From the NCBI GenBank assembly GCA_040220235.1, contig JAVJTO010000070.1: a stretch of DNA of 64,000 nt. The stretch is one strand, 5' to 3'. Below are positions 43,624 through 46,600 of the stretch, one piece after another. Position numbers: made by a program. The stretch's first letter is position 1. Each line of letters opens with the position of its first letter. This DNA comes from Coleofasciculus sp. B1-GNL1-01. Lineage in GTDB: Bacteria > Cyanobacteriota > Cyanobacteriia > Cyanobacteriales > Coleofasciculaceae.

Positions 43624-46600
43624 CTATTGGGTACAGCGTCAAAGGGAAGCCTACTACTATTAGCCAGTGTCAGCCTTCTGACGTAGCATTCGTCTGACCA
43701 TCTGACATGAACTGTACCCGCGTCTGCTTTAGGTTTTCTTTAGACTGCTCCCTAATTAACGGTTAGCTATCCCTTACTGTTTATAGACGGATTGTCAGTT
43801 CTTTTCAAGCTTGCAGGTTTCGGCAAGATTCGTCAATTGGTTTTTGCAGAATCATTGTCCAGGACTTTGAACCTAAATTTGCTACAACTGATACTGAAAA
43901 ATTAGTCAAGCTGATCAGGTATAGACAGATGTTGCCTGTGTCTATCTCTACGATTGAAAAACTTGATTGATCAGCTTGCCCTGAGCCGTTGAGTAGCTCC
44001 ATTATCCTTCTGGAAGAGAGTTGTCTACCGATTTACTCTCTGGGGAACGGGAATCTGGATGGTGGATAAAACTCTATACTATAACAAATAATCCTGATGG
44101 ATAACGTTAAGAGAAGGTAATCTTTCGCTTCTGTGCAAGTCGTACTCATTCTTAACTGGATCGGGTTTGATCAGATTCCTGACTTCTTCAAGATGTCGAA
44201 TATCTAACTCAAAGCTACCTTACATAGAATGTTACTGATATTTTGACGGGTGGGTAATGCCCACCCTACTGTATATTAAGGAATTTTGTCAGACTACTTA
44301 CTCGAAAAAATGAAATTAATATGAATAAAAAATGAATAGATATGGAAAATAGCTTCTGAATTGAATCTCTGAGAAGACTCGATAAAACAATTAAATTGTG
44401 CTATCTTAAAAAAGAATGAAAGGGAGTAGCTCCTGGTCAAAGATTACCAGGATACCTGAATCAACATACTGGTAATGAGCCTGGTTCAGGTGACAAGGGA
44501 TTGAAGCTTCAGGTCATTTGAATCTACAGAATCTGAGCTGAATAGTTAGTTCCTTGGTAGCGAGACTTTCACTAAGTTCACAAGTTGATGTGAGCTTGGT
44601 GGGGTCTGCCTTTTCTCATCAAGCTCCATCAACGGCAATTGATTAAGGAGCTTGTAAAAATGTTAACTGCATTTACCGCCGGATTATTACTAATTACGAT
44701 TTCTGAGTTAGGGGATAAGACGTTTTTTATTGGCGTTATCTTATCCATGCGTTATTCGCGGCGGCTGGTATTTTTGGGAGTCCTAGCGGCGTTAGCAGCG
44801 ATGACAGTACTATCTGTATTATTGGGACAGGTGGTGTCGTTGCTGCCTGACTATTATATCCATTATGGGGAAATTGCCTTATTTTTAGGATTTGGCTTTA
44901 AACTGTTGTATGATGCCAGTAAAATGCCAGCTCAAGCAGAAAATACAGGCGCAAAGGAAGCGGCGGTGGAAGTCGCCAAACAGAATAAGAAAGATAAGTT
45001 ACAGTCTGCCAATCTCGCGATTCTACTGCAAGCCTTTACCATGACATTTCTGGCGGAGTGGGGCGATCGCACTCAAATTAGCACCATCGCTTTAGCCGCC
45101 GCCCATCAACCTGTTGGCGTTACTGTGGGGGCAATTTTAGGTCATGGGATTTGCACCGCGATCGCAGTAATTGGTGGACGATTAATTGCAGGACGAATTT
45201 CTGAACGGTTGGTAACAGCATTAGGAGGCGTATTATTTCTGATTTTCGGTGTCATAGCGATGTTAGAACAAGTTTAGGTAGGTAGGGACAATAAAAGTTA
45301 ACGGCGGGAATCGTCATTCGTCATTTGTCATTCGTCATTCGTCATACTCGCGCAAGCAAGAAGCAAGCTACATCCTTTGTAAGGGTTTGAGGCTTTTGCA
45401 GCAAGCCCTACTTAGGACTCTGAATTGCCAACAAATTGCTGAATGGCATTAAAAAAATGGTTGTGATCCAGGGAGATTCTGATAGGGTGACCCGCCTTTT
45501 TAATCTAATAGCAACTGAAATAGTGAGGCTTCGTCTAACACTATTTTACCGATAACAAATTTCTGGATCGCTTCAAAGTATTGCCACATACCCATGCGAA
45601 ACAAGGTGTTATGATCCGCATTTTTAATCCGTATCAACTGCTTATTTGCGGCTGCACAAGAATGATAGAGCTTTTCTCCCTGTTGGATAGGAATTAACGA
45701 ATCTTTCTCACCATGAATAATCAACGTTGGCACAAGAATGTGGCTAATTTTTTCAGTATTTCTAAATCCAAAACGCTCATCCTCATAATCTCTAACCTGC
45801 CAGCCAAGACGTTTGAGCAAAGCAAAGGTATCGGCAAAACCACTATCGATAATCAATCCAGCTAATTGATCTTGAGCGTGATTAGCAACCGCAATGGCGG
45901 GGACACTACCCAAACTGCGCCCCATTACGTAAAGTCGTTGGGGAAACAGTTGATGCGCCGTTAAAATGCTACTAAAAGCGTCGAATACCTTGAGGGAATC
46001 AGCTAGGAGATTAGACGCGGTGGATGTGCCATCACTTTGACCATAGCCTCGATAGTCAATGACTAAAATAGTAATGCCCAAGACAGTGAAAACTTTGGCA
46101 ATACTATCGTATTCAGCCGCAATTTCACCATTGCCATGGAAAAATAGAATCGCAGGGGAATTGCTAGCGGCGGCGTATAATCGTCCTCTGAGAAAGAGTC
46201 TCGGTTCGATTTCAACATCAATGAGATGGATATTAGGCGATCGCGGTTTTCCTGTTGTGTCCGGTTTAGGATGGAACAGGATTTGCAAAATATCGGGTTT
46301 GTCGAGAATGGGATGCATTATATAGCAGTTGGCGACGTTGTAGATATTTTATCTTTCTTCAATAAGGCGGGGAAGAGTCTATTTTACTCGCTCTGACTCA
46401 ATTACAGAGTTTGGGAGGGTTAGGTGCGATCGCGGAGTGGGAATTCCAGGGATTGACCCCTCCCCCAGCCCCTCCCCGACACGGGGAGGGGAGTACATTT
46501 TCTTGCACAGACATCATCGTAGGGACGCATCGCTATGCGCCCTTAAAACTTTCATAACGCTTCTTTTGTACCTTTTCTAAGAGACGATTAATTTGACTAT

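Follow-up and report, generated by a model that had tools for sequence, protein, structure and literature searches.

The leader of the Escherichia coli mntP gene is an experimentally validated manganese-responsive riboswitch of the yybP-ykoY class, many members of which regulate by means of just one terminator or one sequestering helix. Its members occupy the 5′ leaders of metal exporter genes, which encode UPF0016, TerC, MntP, CaCA or P-type ATPase proteins. Among the gene families considered below, COG2119 is the designation that we take to be equivalent to UPF0016/GDT1. Members of the class have been described as ON signals at high Mn2+, with adenosine A41 contacting the metal in a crystal structure (PMC11672702), and control of UPF0016 genes by yybP-ykoY riboswitches is reported to be common (PMC7380456). 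For cyanobacteria, the RegPrecise survey of Sun et al. (2013) entered 4 yybP-ykoY sites in 14 genomes, including sites before COG2119 in Nostoc sp. PCC 7120 and Synechococcus JA-3-3Ab (Additional file 1) and before ykoY in Gloeobacter (PMC3766115). The survey predates the identification of Mn2+ as the effector and gives the effector of the family as '?' (PMC3766115). Among the papers listed in a literature search covering sources other than subscription journals, none went further than the 2013 table in describing a manganese riboswitch from cyanobacteria. The initial annotation of the DNA analysed here had cited a 2024 Synechocystis study as stating that only ManSR is known for cyanobacteria, which agrees with the relevant passage of PMC11649195, where only ManSR is named, and with the Hmx1/2 preprint, where the word 'riboswitch' does not occur.

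Here we describe the leader of a GDT1-type gene from Coleofasciculus sp. B1-GNL1-01 (GCA_040220235.1, contig JAVJTO010000070.1). The window, i.e. the whole stretch of DNA that was analysed, comprises 64,000 nt; its position 1 is contig position 32,001 and all features given below lie on its plus strand. We estimate at roughly 85% the probability that the region 44415-44659 is the mRNA leader of an Mnx-type exporter, composed of a canonical Mn2+ aptamer and a translational expression platform. Like the mntP leader and the family model RF00080, the element is built as a four-helix junction (P1/L1/P1.2, P2, P3/L3 and P4), carries the common loop letters GGGAGUAGC, UCAACAUACU and GCGAGAC(C), sits in the 5′ leader of a predicted manganese exporter gene and shares the 3′ strand of P1 between aptamer and expression platform. 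It differs from them in its long, length-variable P4 and in its platform, where strands A, B and C and the Shine-Dalgarno strand form a four-membered chain whose conservation extends over several cyanobacterial orders. With the sites of 2013 it has in common the riboswitch family and the downstream gene family (COG2119), because of which we infer that they represent the same element; the 2013 entries differ in consisting, as tabulated, of gene names only, with no structure, distribution or platform analysis. According to the initial annotation, the leader of this Mnx-type GDT1 gene contains a manganese aptamer of the yybP-ykoY type, and this part of its reading stands. Its view of the RNA as divergent falls with the structure described below. 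Its view that the RNA is a new variant of the lineage, giving cyanobacteria an Mn sensor recognised for the first time, finds no support, since the 2013 table already places yybP-ykoY before cyanobacterial COG2119.

Family models, distribution and the downstream gene

The RF00080 model (Rfam 15) matched positions 44422-44558 with 23.3 bits (E 3.3e-4 in the 1 kb scanned), short of the gathering cut-off of 45 bits; in a scan of the whole genome the same match had an E value of 6.8e-4 and the sole other row, located elsewhere, reached 13.5 bits (E 0.56). At E<=0.1 the model found matches in 49 of 151 Cyanobacteriales genomes, the weakest of which probably include some chance hits, and not one of the 151 genomes attained the cut-off. 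The sub-threshold match reported initially was recovered at the same position and score, the statement that no relative passes the cut-off extends to this larger sample, and standard annotation does miss the element, all copies in the Cyanobacteriales sampled lying under the RF00080 threshold. The signature motifs named before were read at 44422-44430 (GGGAGUAGC), 44461-44470 (UCAACAUACU) and 44562-44566 (GAGAC).

The Rfam 15 model of RF00080 has no P1 closing helix; in its alignments GAGAC and the P1 3′ strand are placed in a long terminal 'loop' ending in a U-run, and it is for lack of this helix that the window element scores low. The cut-off is a weak criterion of membership: with the same P1-less model the mntP leader of E. 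coli, an experimentally validated member, reaches 41.6 bits and is itself sub-threshold. The poor fit of the 3′ half, held against the element in the initial annotation, is a feature of the model.

A lineage model, R1, was built from cyanobacterial copies only. It gave a single match in the 64 kb window, at 44415-44573 (123.6 bits, E 8e-28), and one copy in the whole Coleofasciculus genome; the second GDT1 locus of this genome (contig C51, open frame of 146 aa) showed no riboswitch match, in line with the earlier statement that the second GDT1 gene has no such element. Recognition was reciprocal: as RF00080 finds the window element (23.3 bits), so R1 finds the mntP locus of E. coli K-12 (37.4 bits, E 3.8e-8 in 6 kb, next best 5.3 bits), with L1, L3 and GCGAGACC lining up between the two leaders.

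R1 detected the element in 50 of the 151 Cyanobacteriales genomes, intact copies scoring 101-133 bits. The element was present in 49 of the 65 genomes with at least three PF01169 domain matches and in 1 of the remaining 86. A GDT1 homologue lay downstream on the same strand at 31/31 loci (30 fetched and the window's own), as the initial annotation had proposed for Mnx homologues elsewhere in Cyanobacteriales, and at the level of the class 57 of 57 copies checked preceded a same-strand GDT1 homologue located 85-135 nt downstream. One of the 31 loci, L020, belongs to a relative with a broken, decayed copy of the element. In the sister classes of the phylum, where five loci were checked, R1 hits preceded Na_Ca_ex at two loci and TerC at one.

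The gene behind the window element (44660-45277) encodes a six-helix GDT1/UPF0016 (Mnx-type) transporter of 205 aa, matching PF01169 with 161.4 bits in two repeats. Its translation contains the motifs ELGDKT and EWGDRT, one ExGD(K/R)T-type motif being expected per PF01169 repeat; the UPF0016 motif has been defined as E-x-G-D-(K/R)-(T/S) (PMC7380456). The nearest named proteins, 97-98% identical, are entered as 'TMEM165/GDT1 family protein' of Coleofasciculus sp. In having two GDT1 repeats and two ExGD(K/R)T motifs the protein resembles Mnx/SynPAM71 (Sll0615), the six-helix UPF0016 Mn exporter of Synechocystis; for the latter organism, by contrast, the 2013 table lists no yybP-ykoY site (PMC3766115). 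Judged by its family, the product would export manganese into the thylakoid lumen.

Structure and conservation of the aptamer

The aptamer is closed by P1, in which GAAAG (44418-44422) pairs with CUUUC (44566-44570). The L1 internal loop above it is complete, with GGGAGUA on the 5′ side (44422-44428) and GAGA on the 3′ side (44562-44565), the latter forming one stretch with the P1 3′ strand (44562-44570). The loop letters GGAGUA (44423-44428) are identical in 62/62 aligned sequences and align to the same letters in the E. coli mntP leader; A-G-A of the 3′ strand is likewise invariant (62/62), and GAGAC followed by the P1 strand was found at 30/30 intact loci of the first set. P1.2 consists of GC (44429-44430) and its partner GC (44560-44561). 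The P2 hairpin, CCUGGU ... ACCAGG, occupies 44432-44451. P3 (44453-44492) contains a 3-bp inner stem and the asymmetric L3 loop ACAUACU (44464-44470, within the UCAACAUACU motif); the L3 motif CAACAUAC at 44462-44469 has a C-A core that is invariant in 62/62 sequences, a correspondence of letters as distinct from a structural alignment to A41. P4 (44494-44556) is a hairpin of variable length on the base CAAGGGA/UUCCUUG. With P1, L1, P1.2, P2, P3/L3, P4 and the 3′ GAGA all in place, the full element 44415-44573 is a complete canonical yybP-ykoY aptamer with every hallmark of the class.

Covariation was judged over 34 pairs in two alignments, a MAFFT alignment of 28 sequences fitted to no structure and a set of 62 sequences, the 28 included, aligned to the model. 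In the former 96.1% of cells were paired and both sides changed in 23 of the 34 pairs, a result matched by 0/500 shuffles, while partners slid by 1-3 columns left 23-45% paired; the compensatory changes noted in the hairpins at the outset thus appear in an alignment that was not fitted to them. In the latter the figures were 96.2% and 27/34, again with 0/500 shuffles matching. All five pairs of P1 form in 100% of cells (n=62), most relatives having GAAGG/CCUUC, and pair 7 of the P1 helix was counted as compensatory because it occurs as G-C in 54 of the 62 sequences, as A-U in 7 and as G-U in 1. P1.2 is also 100% paired, and each of its two pairs varies on both sides among relatives (first pair G-C 57, G-U 4, A-U 1; second pair C-G 60, U-A 1, U-G 1). 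Both sides change in 6/6 pairs of P2 (96.8% of cells paired), in 9/11 pairs of the outer stem of P3 (98.8%; inner stem 100%) and in 7/7 pairs of the P4 base (85.6%), the distal part of P4 differing in length among genomes. A chance match is ruled out by the GDT1 context (31/31 loci) together with this covariation (0/500 shuffles).

A yybP-ykoY fold could in principle report Ca2+, another divalent cation or, as in the pH-responsive alx leader of E. coli, pH through transcription kinetics. Relatives of the downstream protein carry source names that annotate GDT1/UPF0016 proteins as Ca2+/H+ antiporters; GDT1 proteins can indeed carry Ca2+ as well, and Ca2+ elicits a response from one riboswitch of the class in pneumococcus (PMC11672702). 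We nevertheless hold such a signal to be very improbable here, as the metal-site loops L1 and L3 do not vary and have the same letters as in the mntP leader, which responds to Mn, and Mn-specific effects have been described for Mnx, the cyanobacterial six-helix homologue (10.1101/2023.02.16.528846).

The same loops bear on whether the leader senses a ligand at all. It might be a conserved structure that has lost this function, either a relic or a protein site, such as one for a ManR-dependent factor; the Anabaena UPF0016 gene has been stated in a review to be under ManSR (PMC7380456), and the copy at L020 demonstrates that decay does occur. The window copy, however, is intact, and unpaired loop letters that stay invariant in 62/62 sequences while the stems covary form the pattern expected from selection on a ligand pocket, so that loss of sensing hardly deserves credence. 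Protein control may coexist with the riboswitch, given the report on the Anabaena gene.

Transcript start and expression platform

A candidate promoter was read from the sequence at 44379-44407, with a -35-like TCGATA (44379-44384), a 17-nt spacer and a -10 hexamer TATCTT (44402-44407); a transcript from it would have its 5′ end some 3-6 nt upstream of P1. In 57 of the 62 distinct loci the P1 G is preceded by a TAnnnT hexamer whose first letter lies 9-18 nt away, nearly always 14-18 nt, and TTGAC is frequently present roughly 17 nt further upstream. Since the scan for consensus promoters returned 0 promoter-like sites, the candidate being too weak for it, it is by the positional TAnnnT count that the promoter is proposed. 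In the four RNA-seq runs examined, out of 16 available in contig form, contigs of a relative about 96% identical extend across both leader and gene. These are uninformative on starts, expression and ends, in the last case because they stop where repeats lie, near 44252 and in the heptamer array of 45311-45345.

Four strands follow one another from the P1 3′ strand towards the start codon. Strand A (CUUUCACUAAGUUCAC, 44566-44581) begins with the 5 nt of the P1 3′ strand and can pair over its whole length with strand B (44584-44606), which comprises GUGAGCUUGGUGGGGUC (44590-44606) and a 5′ extension GUUGAU (44584-44589). B can pair with A or with strand C (CAUCAAGCUCCAUCAAC, 44617-44633), and C in turn with B or with strand D (44639-44654), made up of UUGAU for the upper stem, the Shine-Dalgarno sequence AAGGAG (44645-44650) and GCUUG to 44654. 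The 15 pairs of A:B form in 98.5% of cells (n=50; slid partners 31-47%), the 12 pairs of B:C in 93.7%, with both sides changing in 5 pairs, and the 8 pairs of the lower C:D stem in 90.8%; for the upper C:D stem, taken in the register of the MAFFT alignment, the paired share is only 60.6%. The strands being highly conserved, covariation in the platform comes from few cells changed on both sides (9, 11 and 22 in the A:B, B:C and C:D tests). At alignment column 57, a G>A change in B of 7 sequences is met by C>U in strand C in 5, which supports B:C because that pairing alone requires the change.

This conserved chain of P1 3′ strand, B, C and Shine-Dalgarno sequence points to control of translation that manganese would switch on; that Mn2+ is the ligand, that it turns expression on and in which order the strands exchange is our inference. 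At low Mn2+, P1 would not be held closed, and its 3′ strand with the following 11 nt (strand A) would pair with B, so that C could engage the Shine-Dalgarno strand D and translation would be off. At high Mn2+, docking of L1 with L3 would lock P1 and so remove the base of A:B, B would pair with C, and the released Shine-Dalgarno sequence would allow the exporter to be made.

Unconstrained minimum-energy folds contained A:B in 47/50 and C:D in 40/50 sequences, and in the window's own fold strand D was paired with C. Forcing P1 in the window leader produced the flip to B:C (10/12 pairs) with loss of C:D and lowered the cost of opening the region from the Shine-Dalgarno sequence to the start codon from 13.4 to 6.2 kcal/mol, 7 of 11 bases of the Shine-Dalgarno region still being paired, with the freed strand A. 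The opening cost dropped in 49 of 56 sequences (mean 13.2 to 9.9). Under the nearest-neighbour model, forcing P1 gave the B:C flip in only 6/50 sequences; in 40/50 a shortened A:B and C:D both persisted and the Shine-Dalgarno sequence stayed shut. A purely thermodynamic switch was rejected on these 6/50, an equilibrium model by itself being insufficient, and the proposed switch needs kinetic or tertiary contributions.

A terminator hairpin is the classic yybP-ykoY design in Firmicutes, and the same aptamer could have transcription attenuation as its main output: A:B would then be an intrinsic terminator, its base, formed by the P1 3′ strand, being removed when Mn2+ locks P1, with C:D secondary or constant. 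The hairpin 44567-44604 followed by TCTGCCTTTT was indeed flagged as terminator-like, in a scan that returned 3 sites of this kind over 600 nt where 0.2 would be expected, and four loci (L003, L012, L016 and L071) without the B:C/C:D consensus have GGGGUCUUU(U/C) directly 3′ of the hairpin. However, the U-run of the window begins 6 nt past the stem, and the conserved complementarity of B:C and C:D has no role in a pure terminator. A run of at least four U within 10 nt 3′ of the hairpin occurs in only 16/56 distinct platforms, and on this count a terminator as the general output was rejected. As the main output at this locus we regard attenuation as unlikely, if worth keeping in view; under the translational switch, the A:B hairpin of some lineages may terminate transcription too at low Mn2+.

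Manganese sensing in cyanobacteria

The element is real and widespread in cyanobacteria, but the kind of riboswitch was already known. With class, ligand and the link to UPF0016 established before, the gain lies in coverage and in the design of the platform, not in principle. The current RF00080 model misses all these copies and under-scores a textbook member, so that annotation pipelines under-report manganese riboswitches.

A broader proposal, which we advance tentatively and at somewhat less than even odds, is that in most cyanobacteria with an Mnx-type exporter the riboswitch rather than ManSR would be the main sensor of manganese excess, acting through a cyanobacteria-specific five-strand relay (P1 5′ strand, A, B, C and Shine-Dalgarno strand), and that Synechocystis would belong to a minority that lost it. 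Such a loss in Synechocystis would account for the field having overlooked the riboswitch.

Cyanobacteria must weigh the supply of manganese to photosystem II against manganese toxicity. A predicted direct RNA sensor stands before the Mnx-type exporter in about one third of the sampled Cyanobacteriales genomes, and in about three quarters of those that apparently carry such an exporter.

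The aptamer and its gene

The leader of the six-helix, Mnx-type GDT1/UPF0016 gene at 44660-45277 carries a yybP-ykoY-type aptamer (44415-44573, + strand). The match to Rfam family RF00080 reported in the initial annotation was reproduced at 44422-44558 (+ strand) in an Rfam scan with 23.3 bits versus a gathering score of 45 (E = 3.3e-4), and it is the sole match better than E 0.5 in the 8.66 Mb genome. The downstream ORF was confirmed as a GDT1 gene: it encodes a two-repeat Pfam GDT1 protein (PF01169, 161 bits) with the motifs ELGDKT and EWGDRT, and its closest named relatives, annotated as TMEM165/GDT1 family protein, come from Coleofasciculus sp. 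(97-98% identity). Since both neighbouring genes, encoding GAPDH (upstream) and an alpha/beta hydrolase (downstream), lie on the opposite strand, the leader serves the GDT1 gene alone. The second GDT1 locus of the genome (contig C51, a frame of 146 amino acids) is of the short type and, as previously stated, lacks the riboswitch.

Two repeats occur in the vicinity. A G+C-rich inverted repeat, GGGTGGGTAATGCCCACCC (44241-44281), lies upstream of the leader and is probably a dispersed palindromic repeat; contig depth there is ~1,800-3,900 versus 12-190 in the flanks, and contigs break at this point. Directly 3' of the GDT1 stop codon there is a tandem array of five TCGTCAT heptamers (45311-45345), whose words reach depths of 56,000-218,000 in four metatranscriptome contig sets and which is therefore a highly repeated short element.

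Side-by-side reading of 31 loci revealed a closing helix, P1, which brackets the element and is absent from the Rfam alignment (GAAGG...CCUUC; in the window GAAAG...CUUUC, 44418-44422/44566-44570), as well as a 2-bp helix P1.2 (44429-44430/44560-44561) after loop L1 (44423-44428), with GAGA (44562-44565) opposite L1. Between the P1.2 strands lie the hairpins P2 (44432-44451), P3 (44453-44492, including loop L3 at 44464-44470) and P4 (44494-44556), all on the + strand. When this structure of 34 pairs was imposed on 28 distinct sequences as aligned by MAFFT, without fitting to any structure, 96.1% of cells were paired and 23 of the 34 pairs had changed on both sides, which upholds the compensatory pairing claimed earlier for the hairpins. 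None of 500 shuffles reached any of five covariation measures, and sliding the 3' partners by 1-3 columns left 23-45% of cells paired. A covariance model, R1, was made from the 28 sequences and used to realign 62 distinct copies, the 28 among them; 96.2% of cells were then paired and 27/34 pairs had changed on both sides, in an alignment that is fitted to the structure and leans towards it. All 62 copies share the unpaired loop letters GGAGUA, the C-A core of L3 and A-G-A. Covarying stems around invariant loops are the signature of a ligand pocket, and the RNA is a complete, canonical yybP-ykoY aptamer.

Upstream of the aptamer, 57 of the 62 distinct loci have a TAnnnT hexamer that starts 9-18 nt ahead of the initial G of P1 (nearly always 14-18), often with TTGAC ~17 nt above it. 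In the window the corresponding candidate promoter, placed by the TAnnnT position, consists of TATCTT (44402-44407) and TCGATA (44379-44384) on the + strand; a consensus promoter scan called no promoter. Judged from sequence, the mRNA would start a few bases before P1.

Detection and distribution in cyanobacteria

The low Rfam score had been taken as the mark of a divergent RNA, a view not borne out by the complete aptamer. According to the cmscan alignments, the Rfam 15 model of RF00080 (177 positions) lacks P1, takes its 5' strand as unpaired and closes with a long 'hairpin' that has a G-rich stretch and a U-run in the consensus of its loop; the 3' part of the model resembles a terminator consensus. 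With this layout GAGAC and the 3' strand of P1 fall outside the match or within the terminal loop. The experimentally validated mntP leader of E. coli K-12 also stays below the 45-bit cut-off (41.6 bits, the match stopping before GAGAC), and of 14 well-known genomes used as a control only two had an RF00080 match over the cut-off. R1, derived from cyanobacterial copies only, recognized the mntP leader in a 6-kb sequence with 37.4 bits (E = 3.8e-8), against 5.3 bits for the next best match, and aligned L1, L3 and GCGAGACC between the two. It is thus the Rfam model, and not divergence of the RNA, that accounts for the sub-threshold score.

Of 151 sampled Cyanobacteriales genomes, 49 had an RF00080 match at E<=0.1, none of them over the cut-off. 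R1 cleanly parted signal from noise in these genomes, with matches in 50 and scores of 101-133 bits for intact copies. The family spread is uneven, e.g. 6/6 genomes in three families and 0/7, 0/6 and 0/6 in three others. Across the phylum R1 matched 35 of 151 sampled genomes, among them five from other orders of the same class (73-118 bits) and ten from sister classes (32-57 bits); no match was found in two large families of this sample (0/50 and 0/13).

The earlier statement that the same element precedes GDT1 homologues elsewhere holds for all 57 class-level copies checked, each on the strand of a GDT1 gene starting 85-135 nt past the aptamer. Two of these genes encode proteins 28% identical to that of the window and still matching PF01169; at such loci (L015 in genome G135, L017 in G002) the riboswitch is followed by the standard platform, and G002 has two PF01169 domain matches in all. 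At five sister-class loci the downstream genes were Na_Ca_ex (two), TerC (one) or without a Pfam match (two); Na_Ca_ex and TerC genes are usual partners of the class. PF01169 was found in 140 of the 151 Cyanobacteriales genomes. By a proxy count, in which at least three PF01169 domain matches stand roughly for an Mnx-type gene beside the Hmx1/2 pair with no gene-by-gene assignment, the riboswitch occurs in 49 of 65 genomes above this limit and in 1 of the 86 others. According to passages of the Hmx1/2 preprint (10.1101/2023.02.16.528846), most cyanobacteria possess two paired half-size importers (Hmx1/2), and the fused six-helix Mnx type is present in addition in about half; the word 'riboswitch' is absent from that preprint.

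Some genomes have two riboswitch-GDT1 units: G025 and G119 hold two full copies each and have 6 PF01169 domain matches. A partial second copy without P1 (G100:C61:164060-164179) scores 61.3 bits over R1 positions 15-131. L020 (genome G033, contig C126, ~21927-22444; 69.6 bits with R1) is a broken copy, in which only the 5' part of the aptamer (P1 5' strand, L1, P2, P3/L3) is left, fused straight to a GDT1 frame that aligns from residue ~44 onwards. It lacks P4, GAGAC and the platform as well as some 40-odd codons at the start of the gene, a gap that looks like a deletion.

The initial annotation regarded the element as a new lineage variant. COG2119 is taken here to be the UPF0016/GDT1 family. 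Cyanobacterial yybP-ykoY sites before COG2119 have already been catalogued by Sun et al. 2013 (PMC3766115), so the claim of novelty falls. The yybP-ykoY entries of their Additional file 1 are COG2119 in Nostoc sp. PCC 7120, COG2119 twice in Synechococcus sp. JA-3-3Ab and ykoY in Gloeobacter, 4 sites in 14 genomes; Synechocystis 6803 has no entry, nor have nine further strains. Given this list, the element, which comes from a Coleofasciculus-like genome, adds one member to a group whose cataloguing predates knowledge of its ligand. Control of UPF0016 genes by yybP-ykoY is common knowledge (328 of 333 strains in a passage of PMC7380456). As previously noted, the 2024 Synechocystis study (PMC11649195) names, in the passage concerned, ManSR alone. 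In the open-access literature we found no description of the structure of the cyanobacterial element, its breadth in cyanobacteria, its platform or its tie to Mnx physiology.

Expression platform and predicted switching

Four strands 3' of the aptamer are conserved across orders: A (44566-44581, its first five bases being the 3' strand of P1), B (44590-44606, with a 5' extension from 44584), C (44617-44633) and D (44639-44654), all on the + strand; D holds the Shine-Dalgarno sequence AAGGAG (44645-44650), followed by the ATG at 44660. In a MAFFT alignment of 50 platforms (L003, L012, L016, L071, L079 and L080 were left out as aberrant) helix A:B (15 pairs) was paired in 98.5% of cells, B:C (12 pairs) in 93.7% and the lower stem of C:D (8 pairs) in 90.8%, with slid controls at 25-49%; for the upper stem of C:D (5 pairs) the value was 60.6%, in a region where lengths differ and the MAFFT register is unreliable. 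High conservation of the strands leaves few cells with a change in both partners (9, 11 and 22), yet these are informative. Seven sequences have A for G in B at alignment column 57; the U of strand A is kept, pairing as U-G or U-A, and in five of the seven strand C has changed from C to U, a change required by B:C pairing only. In one genus all three strands are altered together (A CACCGAG, B GCUGCUGGUG, C CUCCAGAAAG). The alternative complementarities A:B, B:C and C:D and their conservation are thus directly observed.

In the unconstrained minimum-energy fold of the window leader (z-score -5.9 versus shuffles) both A:B and C:D are present and the Shine-Dalgarno sequence is shut; among 50 relatives A:B formed in 47, C:D in 40 and B:C in none. 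With P1 forced, as a mimic of the bound aptamer, a shortened A:B was obtained in 40/50, B:C in 6/50 and C:D in 36/50, and when the Shine-Dalgarno region was also held open, a constraint that by itself keeps C:D apart, A:B was left in 2/50 and B:C formed in 43/50. In the window leader, forcing P1 alone was enough for B:C to form, with 10 of its 12 pairs, and for C:D to dissolve, a flip shared by only five other sequences. In 49 of 56 sequences the Shine-Dalgarno-to-start region was, by calculation, cheaper to open once P1 had formed; the mean cost fell from 13.2 to 9.9 kcal/mol and that of the window from 13.4 to 6.2.

We propose a relay acting as an ON-switch, in which closing of P1 would weaken A:B and release the 3' end of B, a possible toehold for C, and the B:C helix formed would free the Shine-Dalgarno sequence. 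We infer that Mn2+ is the ligand, as well as the direction of switching and its kinetics. An ON response suits the exporter gene downstream and agrees with a passage of PMC11672702, where the class is described as a fail-safe that signals 'on' when Mn2+ is high. In some lineages the A:B hairpin may act as a terminator, and a terminator scan flagged that of the window as terminator-like, but a U-run of at least four follows in only 16 of 56 platforms. At L003, L012, L016 and L071 the aptamer is retained and so is the A:B hairpin, after which comes GGGGUCUUU(U/C); these four loci lack consensus C and D strands and have a different small hairpin over GGAG before the start codon; their platform may be a terminator-type variant.

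The element is a real, intact yybP-ykoY manganese riboswitch, predicted to control the gene of an Mnx-type exporter; most likely Mn causes the ribosome binding site to be released, and the relay model of its platform is testable. For the family as a whole, the current Rfam model under-detects yybP-ykoY RNAs, and the lineage model R1 cleanly separates the true copies.
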